A stretch of 50,089 nucleotides of DNA. Origin: a bacterium (lineage in GTDB: Bacteria > Hydrothermota > 32-111). Position numbers: made by a program. The DNA is taken from assembly GCA_050239825.1 (NCBI GenBank), contig JBFXGO010000012.1, positions 1 through 50,089 of the forward strand. Direction: 5' to 3'. The stretch's first letter is position 1, and the number at the start of each line of letters is the position of its first letter. This document shows, in pieces, positions 3,001-9,000 of the stretch.

Positions 3001-6000
3001 TATCTTTTTTTTACTAAAAATTATAAAAGGAGTTTGTATGACTCTTGAAGAAAAATTATTGCATCTCAAGAAAAAAAGGGAGACAGCTGAAAAGGGCGGC
3101 GGAGATGAGCGCATAAAAAAACAGCATGAGAAGGGAAAGCTCACAGCCCGCGAAAGAATTCATCTGCTTCTCGATGAGGATTCTTTTGAGGAATTTGACG
3201 CATTTGTCGAGCATAGATGCACGAATTTCGGGATTGAAAAGACAAAGTTTCCTTCAGACGGAGTTGTCACCGGATATGGAACAATAGAGGGAAGGCCGGC
3301 ATTTGTCTTTTCGCAGGATTTCACGATTTTCGGAGGTTCATTGTCTGAAACATACGCGGAGAAGATATGCAAGATAATGGATATGGCCGCTAAGAACGGA
3401 GTTCCGGTAATCGGACTCAATGATTCAGGAGGAGCGAGAATACAGGAGGGGATAGAATCCCTCGCAGGGTACGCCGACATATTCCTCAGAAATGTAATGT
3501 ACTCGGGAGTGGTTCCTCAGATATCTGCAATAATGGGTCCCTGTGCCGGCGGAGCAGTTTATTCTCCTGCTATAACAGATTTCATATTCATGGTCAAAAA
3601 GACCTCTTACATGTTTTTGACCGGTCCGAAAGTTGTGAAGACAGTAACTCATGAAGATGTTACTGATGAGGAGCTCGGAGGAGCGTCGATTCATTCAATA
3701 AAATCGGGTGTAGCATCCTTTGTCAATGATTCTGATGAAGAGACAATAAAACAGATAAGAAGATTGTTCTCATTCATACCTCTAAACAACAGAGAAAATC
3801 CTCCTGTAGTTGAGAATGCTGACCCTATAAACAGAATGGAGATAGGATTAAACACAATAGTTCCTGATGATCCGAATAAACCGTATGATGTGAAAGAGGT
3901 TATAAACATTCTTGTAGATAACGGCGACTTTATGGAGATTCAGCCGAACTTTGCCTCGAACATAGTTATAGGATTCGGACGATTCAACGGAAGGTCTGTG
4001 GGAATAGTGGCAAATCAGCCGAAATCCCTTGCAGGAGTTTTGGATATAAATGCTTCAGAGAAGGGGGCGAGATTTGTCAGGTTCTGCGATTCATTCAATA
4101 TACCGATAGTCACTCTTGAGGATGTGCCGGGATTTTTGCCCGGAACACAGCAGGAGTATGGCGGAATAATTAAGAGCGGAGCGAAACTTCTATACGCTTA
4201 TGCAGAAGCCACAGTTCCAAAAATTACAATAGTGATGAGAAAAGCATACGGCGGAGCATACTGCGTTATGTCATCAAAACATATTCGCGGCGATATTAAT
4301 TATGCCTGGCCTACTGCTGAAATAGCGGTTATGGGTCCGAAGGGAGCTGTTGAAGTAATATTCGCCCGCGATATAATGAAATCGGAAAATCCGGAAGAAG
4401 CAGAGAGAAAATTTGAAAACGAGTACAGGGAAAAGTTTGCCAATCCGTATTCAGCCGCAGTCAGAGGCTATATAGAGGATGTAATAGAGCCGAAGACGAC
4501 AAGATTCAGAATAATCAGGGCTCTTGAACTCTGCAAGAACAAGATGGATTCAAATCCGGCAAGAAAACACGGAAACATCCCATTGTGAGGCGCAGATGAA
4601 GAGAATGACTTTAATATTATTGATTCTCATCTTTGTTCCAATGCTCTTTGGGCAGGAGAAGGCAGATTCAATGGCGGCGGACTCTATCTCGACTGATTCT
4701 TCAATGATACAGCAAGATTCCTCTTCAACTGTGAATTCATCATTGGTGGTTGATGCAAAGGAGACAAAGAATGTGAGCCCGCTGACTTTGACCCTATTGG
4801 GAATGCTTACTGTATTTTCCGGACTTTTGATAATGCAGTTATTTATAAATACCCTTAAGCTGATTTTGAACCCGCCTCCGAAAAAAATTGCAGTTACAAA
4901 GGAGGAGGAGGTAAACAAGGGTCTTCTAAGCAATGTGGATTTGACTGAAGATGAGATGGTAGCAACAATAACTGCGGTTATGATGGAGTCAAAACTTCAC
5001 CATTCGATTTCAAATGACAAATTAACAATAAAATGGCAGGATAAGAATCCTCACTGGATTTCAACAAGGAGAAACTAATGGGAGAGTATATATTCACTAT
5101 CAATGGCAAAGACTATAAAGTCAATGTCAACACCATAGACCAGAGTGCGGCGAATGTTGAAATAAACGGAAAGACATTTGTCGTCAATATGAAACAGGTG
5201 GGAGCTACATCGGAAAAAAAGGATTCAAAAAAGATCCAGCAGGCGCCTGTTCAGGAATCCAAAAGAGTTGAGAGCGGAACAATCAAAAAAATATTGGCTC
5301 CTCTTCCCGGAGTTGTGCTCAATGTCATAGTCAGGGAAGGTCAGGAAATTAAAGAGGGGCAGGATGTAATGGTTATGGAAGCTATGAAAATGGAGAATTC
5401 GATTCACTCTCCTTTTACCGGTAAGGTTATCAGGATAAATGTAAAAAGGGATGATACTGTAGCTGAAGGAGATGTTCTTATAGAGATCGGAGCCTGAAAA
5501 TGATTGAATTAATGAAGACATTTTATACATATACGGGCTTTGCCAATTTCGATTACAGATATCTTATAATGATAGCTGTATCAATGTTCTTTATATACCT
5601 TGCAGTCGCAAAAGAGTATGAACCGATGCTTCTTCTTCCAATAGGATTTGGAATACTTATCGGCAACATACCAATGCTCATTGGTCTGAAGGTCGGAATC
5701 TACGAACCCGGGTCGGTTTTAAACTATCTTTACTTTGGAGTGATAAACGGGCTCTATCCGCCTCTTATCTTCATGGGTATAGGAGCTATGACGGATTTTT
5801 CGACAATCTTATCAAATCCAAAGACAATTCTTCTGGGAGCCGCCGCGCAACTCGGAATATTCACAACATTCATTGCGGCATACTACCTTGGTTTCACTCC
5901 TGCTGAAGCCGGTTCGATAGGAATAATCGGAGGAGCGGACGGACCCACTGCAATATTTCTAACATCAAAACTGGCTCCTCACCTTATTGGTCCCATTGCG

Positions 6001-9000
6001 ATTGCGGCATACTCATACATGGCTCTTGTTCCTGTAATTCAGCCGCCTATTATGAATCTTCTTACTACTAAGAAGGAGAGGCTTATAAGGATGAAGAAAC
6101 CGAGAACAGTAAAAAAAATTGAGAAGATTTTGTTTCCGATTTTTGCTTTTACTGTTTCCGCATTCATAACACCTGCCGCAATTCCTCTTCTTGGAATGCT
6201 TTTCATGGGCAATATTCTAAGAGAGAGCGGAGTGACCAATCGTCTTGCCAAGACAGCCTCTAATGCTCTCATTGATATTTGCACCATCATGATAGGGCTT
6301 ACAGTCGGAGCATCAACTCAGGCAAATGTCTTTTTGACATGGTCATCTATAAAAATATTCATACTCGGTTGCGCCGCTTTTGCATTTTCCACTTTCGGAG
6401 GAATTCTGTTTGCAAAACTCATGAATCTCTTCCTCAAAACCGAAGACAAGATAAATCCTCTTATTGGTTCTGCAGGTGTCTCTGCAGTTCCTGATGCGGC
6501 GAGAGTGTCTGAGATGGTGGGAAGACAGAATGACCCCAACAACCACTTGTTGATGCATGCAATGGGTCCTAATGTTGCGGGAGTGATAGGTTCCGCGATT
6601 GCCGCCGGGATACTTCTCTCATTCTTCGGATAAAAGAATTACTTGAATTTGATTTTTTTGGGGCGGACACTCTTGTTCGCCCTTTTTTATTTTACACCAT
6701 GTCTTTTGCCCTTTTTTGGTGAAAAGGTAAAAAGATAAGAAGGTAAAACAATGGGGAGATTCCTTGTAAAGACAAAATCTTACTCAACCGTGTCACCCTG
6801 AACGCCTCTATGGTTATGACTATCGTGAAGGGTCTATCATTTTATTGTTAATTAATTATTGAAAATTGTTTGGGGGGCTGCACGTGGGTGTAGCGTCGGC
6901 TCACACACTCCGCTTCGCCGCTTTATCAAGATGGGTTAGCGTAGCAAGGGGTCGCCCACTTGATGGGCGTCTTCGCGGAGCGTCCTCGCCGACTTGTAGC
7001 TTTCACTTTCAATAAGTTATTTAATTGATTGTTGCAGTGGGGACACACCGAAGGAATGTCCCCACATTGGCGAGGGTGTAATGTGCGCGAACGCACATGA
7101 TAGAGGTATCGGGTTGCACCAGAACTTTGTGAAGATTACTGTAAAGAATAAATATTACTCAGCTCCGCGTATTAAGCTCATGGCACACGGCACATGGCTC
7201 AAGGCTGATTTAGTGGCTGCACTGGAATTTTTCCTCGGAACTGTAAAGGCAAAATCTTACTCAACTCACTGTATTGAATTTAAACTCTTATCCAGCACTC
7301 TTTTACCTTTTACCTTTTAACTTTGTAACTTTACATATTGCTCTTGTCATTTTGCATACTTTGTTTATAATAAAAATATGGAATATAAATCTATTAAAGG
7401 GCTCAGGTATTTTCTATTCGTGTTTCTGGGTCTTCTTATAGTTGCGGATATTATCGCATATTTTGTTTTTGTTAACATTATAAAAAGCAGTGGTGAAGAG
7501 TATAAGAATGACAGATACTCAACTGTGAATTCTTTTATAGAGTCAACAAAAAAAAGGTTTGACTTATACTCAAATTCCATCGATTTCATAAACAAAGAGC
7601 AGGATATAATAAGAAAGAGCATAAGCGAGAGAAATGTCTATTCATACTATTTAACAGATTCAACTCTCTTTCCCATTATAGTTTCAAAATCATTCAAATT
7701 TGACCAAAAGTATATCCGCAATTTCTTCATGCCGATTTTAAAGGATAATCTTTCAATGAGATACTTTATAGATAATTATGAGATATATTCATTCAAAATA
7801 GAGAATAAAAACAGAAATGTTATTTTTGCGGTCTTTGCATTTGAGACGGGTAGCGGATATATGAATAGAATCATGCTCTACTTTTTCATTTACCGCACAA
7901 TAATCCTTATTTTTATACTCATTTTCTCTGCTTTCCTGTTATTTTCAATAGAGAAACCTTTAAGAAGTATTTCGAACATTGCTCAATCTTTAAAAATCAG
8001 AATAAATCCGAATGATCAGGGAAATATTGTTAAGGTTTTCAGCGACTCAATGGAGGAGATTCTTAAAAAACAGAGGGAAGATGAGGATGCGATGGATGCC
8101 CTTTTAATAAAATACAAAAAGATGGAGGATGATTTTCTCTCCAAAGAGGGGCTTCTGAAATTGTCGGAGATAACAAACGGCATAGCGCATCAGCTGAATA
8201 ATCAGCTGGGAGGAATAACCGGACTAATGCAGGCGGCGGAAAGGTCTAATGATGTTTCCCTTTACAGAGAGGCATATAATCAACTTAAAGTGCTCAGCGA
8301 CTTTACAAAAAAATTTCTGGAATTTGCAGGAAGCACAAAACCCTATTTTTCTGATGTCGACATTGCAGAGGTTGTTGAGAGAACTGCATTGAGGCATGAA
8401 GTGAGTATTAAAGGCAATTTGAATGGAACAATAGTAAAATCAGACAATCATCTTTTAGAACAGATTTTTATCAATCTGTTTGACAATATTTCAAAATATT
8501 CAAAAAAAAGAGAGGCAGATGTTGAGTTAAGAGAGATTCCCAATAAAATAATATTAAAGGTGACTGATGGTGGAGAAGGTTACCCTGAGAGTGTTTTAAA
8601 GAATCTATACAATCCTTTTTCAGAGACATCCCACGGCTATGGCCTTGGAATACCAACTGTGGTGAAACTTGCGTCAATTTTGAATCATGCTGTTGAATTC
8701 AGGAATGAAGATAAAAGGGGAGTCTTTGAAATTACTTTTATAAAAGAGGTTGAATAATCGTGAGTAGAATTCACATAGTGGAGGATAACTCATCATTCAA
8801 GCTCTTTCTTAAAGAAGCTTTAAAAGAGTACGGAGAATTATGTTTTTCAGGCACTCTGTTCGACGCAAGAAAAAGAATATCATCCGAAACATTTGACCTG
8901 CATCTTCTTGACATGCGTCTTCCCGACGGAAGCGGCATGGAATTGCTGGATTTGTTGAACAGCACAAATGAAAAACCGAAGGTGGTTGTTCTGACAGCCT

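Follow-up and report, generated by a model that had tools for sequence, protein, structure and literature searches.

An operon resembling a sodium-pumping methylmalonyl-CoA decarboxylase in a WOR-3 class without biotin carboxylase, and its probable second role in malonyl-CoA supply

The window, a stretch of 50,089 nucleotides from the genome of an uncultured WOR-3 bacterium, carries a four-gene operon at 3038..6633 on the forward strand. The genes encode a carboxyltransferase (CT1), a small membrane anchor, a biotin carrier and an OAD_beta subunit (Table 1). The start of CT1 agrees with its 516-aa orthologues. Its best solved relative is the PCC beta subunit 3n6r (726.9 bits), and it scored 839.3 bits against TIGR01117 (mmdA), under the cut-off of 998.8. 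The anchor reading frame runs from a TTG at 4524 to 5078, and its likely start is the ATG at 4596, preceded by GAGG at 4587-4590. The anchor fell under the TIGR01195 cut-off (25.2 vs. 36.05 bits); of the 10 class operons fetched, 9 contain a recognisable homologue. The BCCP1 start overlaps the anchor stop (TAATG), and Beta1 scored 494.4 bits against TIGR01109, above the cut-off of 190.6. A terminator-like hairpin lies 27 bases past the beta stop codon. The upstream promoter is only a candidate, because the region is not richer in sigma-70-like matches than shuffled sequence (12 vs. a mean of 9.9). The operon was conserved in all 10 class loci fetched. All the parts named in the genome-wide survey's note (this operon, a second set of genes and the FAS II genes) were found in their places.

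Table 1. Features of the operon in the window and related genes on other contigs
Feature	Location	Strand	Evidence
Candidate sigma-70-like promoter, weak	2975..3003	+	TTGACT-17-TAATAT, 9/12, upstream of CT1
CT1, carboxyltransferase (alpha) subunit, MmdA/PccB type, 516 aa	3038..4588	+	PF01039, E 1e-202
OAD_gamma / MmdD-like membrane anchor, ~160 aa	4596..5078	+	PF04277, 34.8 bits (cut-off 27)
BCCP1, biotin carrier subunit (MmdC-like), 139 aa, EAMKM motif	5078..5497	+	PF00364, 62.6 bits
Beta1, membrane carboxybiotin decarboxylase / sodium channel (OAD_beta), 377 aa	5500..6633	+	PF03977, 514.4 bits
Intrinsic terminator-like hairpin, operon end	6660..6693	+	10-pair stem, 6 G-C pairs, then TTTTTATTTT
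CT2 and small carrier (BCCP2)	contig C40		
Lone OAD_beta	contig C56		
5S/PycB-type transferase without biotin domain	contig C10		

The survey's note had claimed that this genome lacks biotin carboxylase (BC). PF02785 gave no match in it at E<=10 (98.97% completeness, 0.27% contamination), and PF02786 matched only PurD and Ddl. The absence widened to the whole class: the BC domain was found in 0 of 14 genomes of the family and 0 of 19 of the class (2 families, 7 genera; 5 of the 19 below 90% completeness). At a completeness of at least 85%, BC occurred in 0 of 16 class genomes vs. 207 of 210 elsewhere in the phylum. OAD_beta was the mirror image, being present in 14 of these 16 (17 of all 19) and in 0 of the 210 outside, as the note had held in confining it to the class. 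The sister family, absent from the survey's sample, showed the same pattern of BC and OAD_beta. In addition, accA was found in 0 of 11 class genomes vs. 64 of 65 outside. These results confirm a class of uncultured WOR-3 bacteria without any ATP-driven biotin carboxylase or normal acetyl-CoA carboxylase. With BC and an AccA-type carboxyltransferase both missing, a biotin enzyme could form malonyl-CoA here only without BC.

The CT1 clade (11 rows, 99*) is nested in a larger group of 31 rows, all from WOR-3 (98*), the rest of which are BC- and/or mutase-linked. The order CT-BC(-BCCP) occurs in 7 of 20 outgroup loci, and CT1 shares 60-67% identity with the orthologues of other WOR-3 bacteria. CT1 is thus a vertical descendant of the phylum's BC-linked propionyl-CoA-carboxylase-type transferase, indicating that BC was swapped for pump subunits. 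The genome also carries, in a row, a protein with a mutase N-terminal domain (787 bits), an epimerase for methylmalonyl-CoA that passes its cut-off (136.3 bits) and a gene resembling phosphate butyryltransferase. All 5 genomes tested for the mutase have it, and it is no more than 4 kb from CT1 in both loci of the sister family and in 14 of the 20 from the outgroup. Given this cluster and the mutase adjoining CT1 in the sister family, the gene content suggests that the window operon is best understood as a sodium-pumping methylmalonyl-CoA decarboxylase with a catabolic role, the alternative that the note had itself raised. The position of CT1 outside the beta-linked MmdA clade and below the mmdA cut-off counts against this reading. 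The note's main proposal, that malonyl-CoA is made without ATP by running the membrane decarboxylase in reverse or by transcarboxylation, stood in part: the operon itself looks catabolic, but a BC-free origin is still required if a biotin enzyme makes malonyl-CoA.

We consider that the biotin system of the operon probably also supplies malonyl-CoA. A doubtful alternative is that the biotin enzymes are purely catabolic, decarboxylating methylmalonyl-CoA and, in genera g1 and g2, oxaloacetate as well; malonyl-CoA would then come from an unrecognised enzyme or imported malonate, or acyl chains would be mostly scavenged. The mutase-epimerase-phosphotransacylase cluster suits propionate fermentation, and g1 and g2 are the only genera in which the 5S subunit and a second beta occur together, a pattern that a separate oxaloacetate decarboxylase would produce. 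Two genes resembling long-chain acyl-CoA ligases could allow lipid scavenging, which also counts against our reading, and LpxC was not found, so there is no evident lipid A demand for acyl-ACP. Of the full FAS II set described in the note, the fab operon on contig C13 (YceD-PlsX-FabH-FabD-FabG-ACP-FabF) and fabZ (186.9 bits, above its cut-off) are in place; the FabK-type reductase is a weak NMO-family match far under its cut-off (134.7 vs. 453 bits), a further point for this alternative, and the identity of the enoyl-ACP reductase is not secure. Nevertheless, chain elongation needs malonyl-ACP, and the class as a whole keeps the fab operon intact along with fabZ and PlsX; each of the 5 representatives of genera g3-g7 has fabF. 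The searches turned up no malonyl-CoA synthetase of MatB grade, the best malonyl-CoA synthase score being 213 bits against a cut-off of 558. Furthermore, the control genome of Thermotoga maritima, without BC, mutase or any accA match at E<=1e-30, has the same pattern, with Carboxyl_trans, OAD_beta, PYC_OADA, fabF and fabZ.

The second transferase, CT2, also argues against purely catabolic enzymes: a soluble CT2 and carrier with no BC, beta or 5S alongside could by itself perform only acyl-CoA-to-acyl-CoA carboxyl transfer. CT2 and its small carrier belong to a widespread two-gene module distinct from the window operon. The pairing was seen in 10 of 10 CT2 loci fetched, and in the separate CT2 clade 48 of 50 rows stand beside a small BCCP only or alone (within 4 kb, same strand). 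Two class CT2 loci (L043 and L047), tagged by script as mutase-linked although these may be weak matches, qualify that statement. At the position equal to MePcc D407 / ScPccB D422, CT2 has Ile in 11 of 11 copies, and CT1 has Cys or Asp. A change from Asp to Ile there raises the activity with acetyl-CoA, according to the text available of PMC10266731 and PMC7835884. Because Ile is also found in all 30 beta-linked transferases aligned, mutase-linked ones included, it marks promiscuity rather than acetyl-CoA specificity. The best solved relative of CT2 is T. maritima TM0716 (711.7 bits vs. 619 for the next; PDB 1vrg, PMC1933160), for which our literature search found no functional study. At least two Carboxyl_trans matches occur in 18 of 19 class genomes. 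The remaining genome, G002 (99% complete, 30 contigs), has one match and no CT2; the class may therefore be able to do without CT2 and manage with CT1 only. Of 5 outside genomes tested, 3 carry CT2-type modules alongside BC and accA, so the module is not in itself a replacement of acetyl-CoA carboxylase, and the neighbours of CT2 loci showed no conserved link to fab genes. Judged from these sequences, the acquired CT2-BCCP2 pair would be the likeliest acetyl-CoA-facing transferase. The analysis directly establishes the gene content, its distribution, the operon structure and the descent of CT1; we infer the substrates, the direction of the reactions and malonyl-CoA formation by CT2.

The note had also offered transcarboxylation from oxaloacetate. 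This fails as a general answer: of 19 class genomes only 8 have the 5S subunit, and these fall within 2 of the 7 genera (g1 and g2), yet the whole class has fabF and lacks BC. Against the 5S-specific NCBIfam model the protein on contig C10 scored 311 bits (cut-off 827). Methylmalonyl-CoA is the possible carboxyl donor that is universal. Sharing one carrier is normal, since CT, BCCP, beta and 5S are consecutive in operons at 5 loci in other phyla. Transcarboxylase accepts acetyl-CoA, as PMC8085960 states with reference to Swick and Wood 1960. We therefore favor, with middling confidence, the following explanation as a whole. Inside the WOR-3 class, imported anchor and beta genes would have taken the place of BC in the phylum's own CT-BC-BCCP acyl-CoA carboxylase operon, and the class would have lost all its BC together with the AccA-type acetyl-CoA carboxylase. 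CT1 would move the carboxyl group of (S)-methylmalonyl-CoA to the biotin on BCCP1, the beta subunit would decarboxylate carboxybiotin and export Na+, and the small anchor would keep the complex assembled. In a succinate-to-propionate route, this decarboxylation would be the final step to conserve energy. Since the class retains fatty-acid synthesis, malonyl-CoA would most likely also come from this BC-free pool of carboxybiotin, by carboxyl transfer to acetyl-CoA, the donors being methylmalonyl-CoA in all genera plus oxaloacetate via the 5S subunit in g1 and g2.

Alternatively, beta, carrier and CT1 or CT2 might run backwards on the Na+ gradient and carboxylate acetyl-CoA with CO2, which would make the complex an ATP-free, ion-gradient-driven acetyl-CoA carboxylase. 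We regard this as improbable. Reversal of a decarboxylase is thermodynamically demanding, and it is unnecessary because one or more carboxyl donors are available in every lineage. In genus g4 the beta gene has an in-frame TAG (G008) or was not found (G009, where contig ends could account for it), and both CT genes are kept; this is weak evidence. Conversely, OAD_beta, carrier and CT are the sole parts common to the class, T. maritima and two other BC-less genomes (G232 and G233, which also have fabF and PYC_OADA), and the donors vary by lineage, with the mutase absent in T. maritima and 5S in g3-g7. Reversal with acetyl-CoA was reported in vitro by Dimroth and Hilpert in 1984, a title cited in PMC7274780 and PMC13147460; one sentence of the former states the reversibility. 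A published survey, in the text available, calls Na+-Rnf ubiquitous in WOR-3 (PMC12542636). The present data fit both reversal and simple carboxyl transfer. Finally, the idea that gaps in assembly or binning, or extreme divergence, concealed a BC is hardly credible: every genome is a metagenome bin and some are incomplete, but the same search that detects BC in nearly all other genomes of the phylum found none over 7 genera, bins of 2 to 30 contigs included, the ATP-grasp model recovered nothing further, and accA is gone too.

The note had presented an ATP-independent route into fatty-acid synthesis as new. It is less new than claimed, given the 1984 reversal and two further precedents. BC-less Thermotogales and Spirochaetes were already noted in 2011 (PMC3199775, in the part available), and a FapR-controlled unit of Caldicellulosiruptor bescii is called "malonyl-CoA biosynthesis" (PMC7071700). 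The gene pattern is not unique either, recurring in T. maritima, one Fermentibacter genome and one Bacteroidota genome. We found no enzymology in the published literature.

Among known systems, the Na+-translocating methylmalonyl-CoA decarboxylase (Mmd alpha/beta/gamma/delta, EC 7.2.4.3) has the same four subunit types in one operon. Examples are the enzymes of Veillonella and Propionigenium. The host genome of the window likewise provides mutase and epimerase, but it has no BC or acetyl-CoA carboxylase of any kind, and CT1 sits in the WOR-3 BC-linked carboxylase clade. The CT-BC-BCCP propionyl-CoA carboxylase operon of other WOR-3 bacteria holds the vertical orthologue of CT1 and often adjoins a mutase too; in the window operon, anchor and beta stand in for BC, and the ATP-driven carboxylation half-reaction is gone. 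Transcarboxylase (EC 2.1.3.1; 12S, 5S, 1.3S; PDB 1on3) has a 12S-type CT (606 bits to CT2) and a small carrier, plus a 5S-type subunit that lacks a biotin domain, whereas the genes here lie on three contigs and 5S is patchy. TM0716, the nearest solved relative of CT2, has Ile at the same specificity position, and T. maritima, an example of the BC-less gene set of Thermotogales, shares the lack of BC and accA and the CT, OAD_beta, 5S-type, fabF and fabZ genes, but, unlike our genome, it has no methylmalonyl-CoA mutase. The C. bescii unit, as far as its published description goes (PMC7071700), shares the order CT, small protein (hypothetical), BCCP and fourth subunit. Its fourth gene is annotated as oxaloacetate decarboxylase, in contrast to the membrane beta subunit in the window, and the unit is tied by regulation to fatty-acid synthesis, whereas no FapR or other regulatory fab link is known for the window operon.

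Bacterial fatty-acid synthesis is regarded as starting universally with acetyl-CoA carboxylase, an enzyme that costs ATP, is regulated and serves as an antibiotic target. The genome-wide survey's note had described a genome with fatty-acid synthesis and no biotin carboxylase (BC) anywhere, in a class to which the sodium-channel subunit OAD_beta is confined within the phylum. The observation proved real, robust and wider than reported. In the genome that carries the window (2,115,113 bases, 67 contigs, 98.97% complete, 0.27% contamination), Biotin_carb_C gave no match even at E ≤ 10, and the ATP-grasp model CPSase_L_D2 matched just two genes (C22:49922-50221 and C50:22557-23075), identified as PurD and Ddl. 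The same model revealed no large subunit of carbamoyl-phosphate synthetase in this genome. Biotin_carb_C was absent from all 14 genomes of the family and from all 19 of the class (2 families, 7 genera). Among genomes at least 85% complete, it was found in 0 of 16 class members and in 207 of 210 from the rest of the phylum, the three exceptions being 85, 86 and 92% complete. The corresponding counts for OAD_beta were 14/16 and 0/210, with 17 carriers among all 19 class genomes. In a sample of 76 genomes, accA (E ≤ 1e-30) was found in none of 11 class members and in 64 of 65 others. Every Carboxyl_trans (PF01039) match in the 19 class genomes (E ≤ 1e-10) belonged to one of two carboxyltransferase types, CT1 or CT2, or was a fragment thereof. 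Therefore, the class has lost classical acetyl-CoA carboxylase along with every other BC enzyme, and it is the sole holder of the sodium-pump subunit in the phylum.

The full type II fatty-acid synthesis set claimed in the same note held for the fab operon and fabZ. On contig C13 the gene order was YceD-PlsX-FabH-FabD-FabG-ACP-FabF-RNase III, and fabZ scored 186.9 bits, above its cut-off. The FabK-type enoyl reductase was an NMO-family match only, and with a score of 134.7 bits (cut-off 453) this step is insecure. In the class's five remaining genera, all representatives searched carried fabF (5/5). Lipid A was considered as an argument that acyl-ACP is needed, and rejected. LpxC was not found in the genome, so no demand for lipid A can be argued, and an LpxL-like protein near CT2 was a weak match (63 bits; cut-off 248). 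LpxC is missing although the window and the genome encode proteins with type IX sorting tails, and the cells may have an outer membrane without classical lipid A. Judged from gene content, a fatty-acid synthesis that would be fed without an ATP-dependent carboxylase is a well-founded paradox.

Features of the window operon and of the related loci
Feature	Location	Strand	Evidence
CT1, carboxyltransferase, 516 aa	window 3038-4588	+	PF01039, E 1e-202
Small membrane protein (anchor)	window; ORF open from TTG 4524, likely ATG start 4596 after GAGG	+	OAD_gamma, weak match
BCCP1, biotin carrier, 139 aa	window 5078-5497	+	PF00364, 62.6 bits; EAMKM motif
beta1, OAD_beta	window 5500-6633	+	TIGR01109, 494.4 bits (cut-off 190.6)
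10-pair hairpin and T run, closes the operon	window 6660-6693	+	terminator-like
CT2, 514 aa, then small carrier BCCP2	C40		mmdA model, 808.5 bits; EAMKM in BCCP2
Second OAD_beta	C56, alone beside typA
5S-type protein, 598 aa	C10		HMGL-like and PYC_OADA domains, no biotin domain
Mutase catalytic-domain gene, epimerase and phosphate butyryltransferase-like gene in a row	C24:24957-27842 (L139:6958-9843)
Two-gene modules outside the class	L070, L073, L075-L087, L091, L092, L096, L097, L104, L106, L107, L109, L112, L133

The window operon (3038-6633, plus strand) consists of four tightly coupled genes in the order CT1, anchor, BCCP1 and beta1, and the BCCP1 start overlaps the anchor stop (TAATG). 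CT1 scored 839.3 bits with the NCBIfam model mmdA (TIGR01117), below its cut-off of 998.8. The anchor, a candidate subunit of OAD_gamma/MmdD type, scored 34.8 bits with Pfam (cut-off 27) and 25.2 bits with NCBIfam (cut-off 36.05). The arrangement CT1-(anchor)-BCCP-beta recurred in all ten class CT1 loci, with the anchor recognised in nine. The beta gene of one of them (L038:647-1771, on C54 of genome G008) is interrupted by a single in-frame TAG, which leaves two ORFs (178 and 190 aa). G009, a genus mate of G008, had no OAD_beta match, and its CT1 lies about 1 kb from a contig end. Gene content of the window was examined up to 13.3 kb. Three proteins with type IX secretion tails lie upstream of the operon (69-2886); downstream, a histidine kinase and sigma-54-dependent response regulator pair (7378-10043) directly follows the terminator, together with an amidohydrolase. 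The genes on either side bear no evident relation to the operon.

On C24, the mutase N-terminal-domain protein scored 787 bits, and the methylmalonyl-CoA epimerase scored 136.3 bits, above its cut-off. The mutase was present in 5/5 genomes tested and adjoins CT1 in the sister family. Such company is the standard setting of a methylmalonyl-CoA decarboxylase that pumps sodium and ends a route from succinate to propionate, and we predict this function for 3038-6633. The row of mutase, epimerase and phosphotransacylase suggests an ATP gain from propionyl phosphate.

The second transferase-carrier pair, CT2-BCCP2, was present in 18 of the 19 class genomes, and 10/10 class CT2 loci read CT2-small BCCP. 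The exception, G002 (99% complete, 30 contigs), has CT1, two OAD_beta and the 5S-type gene. CT1 and CT2 share 55% identity, and the two beta subunits 66%. On C40 the pair is followed by a secreted-looking 215-aa ORF and then glmS. We considered this ORF as a membrane anchor and rejected it: its N-terminus resembles a signal peptide, it matches no family, and copies from different genera are only about 25% identical. The neighbours of CT2-type modules (37 from 8 loci) included no shared family and no fab genes, and we found no regulatory or neighbourhood link between CT2 and the fab genes. The C10 protein scored 418.8 bits with the PycB domain model (against 402) and 311 with the 5S model NF008984 (against 827). 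Its gene occurred in 8/19 class genomes, all of genera g1 and g2, and the second beta was limited to the same genera; together they look like a separate oxaloacetate decarboxylase.

Substrate preference was approached through the position matching D407 of the Methylobacterium enzyme, which we located with the help of the entries 6ybp and 6ybq for wild type and variant. A passage of PMC10266731 reports that D407I raised the acetyl-CoA activity from 1.1 to 15.5 U/mg, and according to part of PMC7835884, specific and promiscuous enzymes of Streptomyces are told apart by the equivalent position (D422/I420). CT2 has Ile here in 11/11 copies; CT1 has Cys in nine and Asp in two. The same Ile occurred in 30/30 beta-linked transferases of the alignment, mutase-linked ones included, which rules it out as a discriminator of acetyl- and propionyl-type substrates. 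The Ile of CT2 is thus no proof that acetyl-CoA would be its substrate.

The descent of both transferases was traced from 20 class loci and 20 of the 32 high-scoring transferase loci of the outgroup (phylum members outside the class). Neighbours were labelled by blastp against the genome's own proteins, with a mutase probe added later. The outgroup transferases were 60-67% identical to CT1. Seven of the 20 loci read CT-BC (about 500 aa), continuing with BCCP in six of these seven, and a mutase lay within 4 kb in 14/20. Two trees were built, with FastTree (119 rows) and with IQ-TREE in quick mode (82 rows, duplicates and two long branches dropped). In both, class CT1 formed one clade (support 99-100) nested in a 31-row, WOR-3-only set (97-98), class CT2 formed one clade (98) inside a separate 50-row group, and the beta-linked transferases of Clostridia and Spirochaetes formed a third group. 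The 25 non-class rows of the CT2 group came from records titled Ignavibacteria, Kapaibacterium, Bacteroidota, Desulfuromonadaceae, Fermentibacter, Aegiribacteria and others. Within 4 kb on the same strand, 48 of the 50 rows stood beside only a carrier of about 103 aa or alone, a reading qualified by class CT2 loci L043 and L047, which the script tagged as mutase-linked (mutase-like match within 4 kb, same strand). The simplest history suggested by these trees and gene orders is that the transferase of an ancestral CT-BC-BCCP carboxylase operon was retained, that BC gave way there to an imported anchor and beta, and that the CT2 module would have been gained separately. Outside the class, the two-gene module (a 514-aa carboxyltransferase with the motif GGGYIAM and the carrier of about 103 aa) occurred at 25 loci, from records whose titles name several phyla, in varied contexts with no shared neighbouring genes. 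We found no described function for it.

Thermotoga maritima was the sole one of 14 control genomes lacking Biotin_carb_C. It had no accA match at E ≤ 1e-30 and no mutase; Carboxyl_trans, OAD_beta, PYC_OADA, fabF and fabZ were present. Among solved structures, its TM0716 (PDB 1vrg, identified from PMC1933160) came closest to CT2, with 711.7 bits and 619 for the runner-up, and it shares the Ile; a literature search covering few subscription papers found no functional study of it. Five outside genomes with a CT2-type module were tested. BC and accA were missing from G232 and G233 (completeness not given), which carried OAD_beta, fabF and a 5S-type gene. Both BC and accA occur in the other three, and therefore the module alone is not a substitute for acetyl-CoA carboxylase. 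For other anaerobes, earlier publications already contain hints of a fatty-acid synthesis supplied without BC. Lombard and Moreira state, in a part of PMC3199775, that Thermotogales and Spirochaetes lack BC of the acetyl-CoA carboxylase type and that Thermotogales keep the CoA-type transferase. A section of PMC7071700 describes a Caldicellulosiruptor bescii unit of carboxyltransferase, hypothetical protein, BCCP and oxaloacetate decarboxylase, derepressed with the fab operon upon fapR deletion and named malonyl-CoA biosynthesis by its authors. The same search found no paper demonstrating that native fatty-acid synthesis obtains its malonyl-CoA without BC, and the main-text portion of the WOR-3 survey PMC12542636 mentions none of biotin, malonyl and propionate.

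The mutase, CT1 operon, CT2 pair (18 of 19 genomes) and fab genes recur throughout the class. A carboxyltransferase and carrier without BC, beta and 5S move a carboxyl group only between acyl-CoAs; therefore, the CT2 pair fits transcarboxylation, in which methylmalonyl-CoA and acetyl-CoA would yield propionyl-CoA and malonyl-CoA. Transcarboxylase accepts acetyl-CoA (Swick and Wood 1960, as cited in a passage of PMC8085960). The note had also proposed transcarboxylation from oxaloacetate; this fails as a class-wide route because the 5S-type gene is limited to g1 and g2. Counted together with the decarboxylase function of the operon, simple carboxyl transfer is ranked first, and we give it an even chance. 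The ranking rests on two points: every BC-less lineage has a carboxyl donor (methylmalonyl-CoA in the class, the 5S-type subunit in Thermotoga), and transferases sharing one carboxybiotin pool are normal, since CT, carrier, beta and 5S share an operon in five loci of other phyla. Counted against it are the absence of CT2 from G002, the missing CT2-fab link, the uncertain enoyl reductase, the absence of LpxC and two acyl-CoA ligase-like genes. In the Clostridia- and Spirochaete-type records L100, L103, L105, L115 and L136, CT, carrier, OAD_beta and a 5S/OadA-type subunit are encoded consecutively, which suggests decarboxylase complexes with two alternative carboxyl donors.

A broader proposal is that the class makes all its malonyl-CoA ATP-free from a shared carboxybiotin pool, as Thermotogales, a Fermentibacter lineage and some Bacteroidota would do independently. 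CT2-BCCP2 would then be a stand-alone acyl-CoA:acetyl-CoA transcarboxylase replacing acetyl-CoA carboxylase, with beta reversible on the sodium gradient when donors are scarce. We advance this tentatively and consider it somewhat doubtful as a whole. It is unlikely that malonyl-CoA comes from an unrecognised source or from scavenging. The two acyl-CoA ligase-like genes speak for such a source; MatB was rejected, as the two AMP-binding proteins reached only 183 and 213 bits (cut-off 558) and resemble generic long-chain acyl-CoA ligases. We consider it improbable that sodium-driven reversal of the pump supplies malonyl-CoA. All BC-less lineages seen have only beta, carrier and transferase in common, which keeps alive the reversal that the note had proposed; however, each of these lineages also has a carboxyl donor. 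Dimroth and Hilpert reportedly obtained reversal with acetyl-CoA in vitro in 1984. A statement on reversibility also appears in a portion of PMC7274780. That a BC is present and was missed is hardly credible beside a class-wide count of zero.

Acetyl-CoA carboxylase is completely missing from an entire class and, judged by gene pattern, from several unrelated anaerobes, one of them cultured. The exchange is cleanly datable, with BC and accA lost, OAD_beta gained and the ancestral carboxylase transferase kept, and it leaves a short list of assayable candidates: CT1, CT2, two carriers, beta and 5S. If ATP-free supply is true, one ATP would be saved per C2 unit in energy-starved fermenters, and metabolic engineers would have a natural template for making malonyl-CoA in this way. 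If the pool is indeed shared, fatty-acid synthesis would be coupled directly to the sodium cycle and to intermediates of fermentation. The change from carboxylase operon to sodium pump by a subunit swap would be a tidy example of a pathway direction reversed in evolution.

Compared with known systems, the class differs from those using AccABCD or another BC-containing acetyl-CoA carboxylase in having neither a BC domain nor an AccA/AccD carboxyltransferase. CT2-BCCP2 resembles transcarboxylase (EC 2.1.3.1) in pairing a 12S-type carboxyltransferase (1on3 scores 606.5 bits) with a small carrier; unlike in that enzyme, the 5S gene lies on another contig and occurs in fewer than half of the class genomes. 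The 5S-type protein, unlike the alpha subunit of the OadABG sodium pump, has no fused biotin domain, and the second OAD_beta co-occurs with it in g1 and g2, but the genes are not adjacent. The window operon shares with the sodium-translocating methylmalonyl-CoA decarboxylase a Carboxyl_trans alpha subunit, an OAD_beta in the same operon, a separate EAMKM carrier, and a mutase and epimerase supplying (S)-methylmalonyl-CoA. In contrast to beta-linked MmdA, CT1 falls below the mmdA cut-off and groups instead with the BC-linked WOR-3 clade. The window operon would encode an enzyme of known kind, unusual in its origin.
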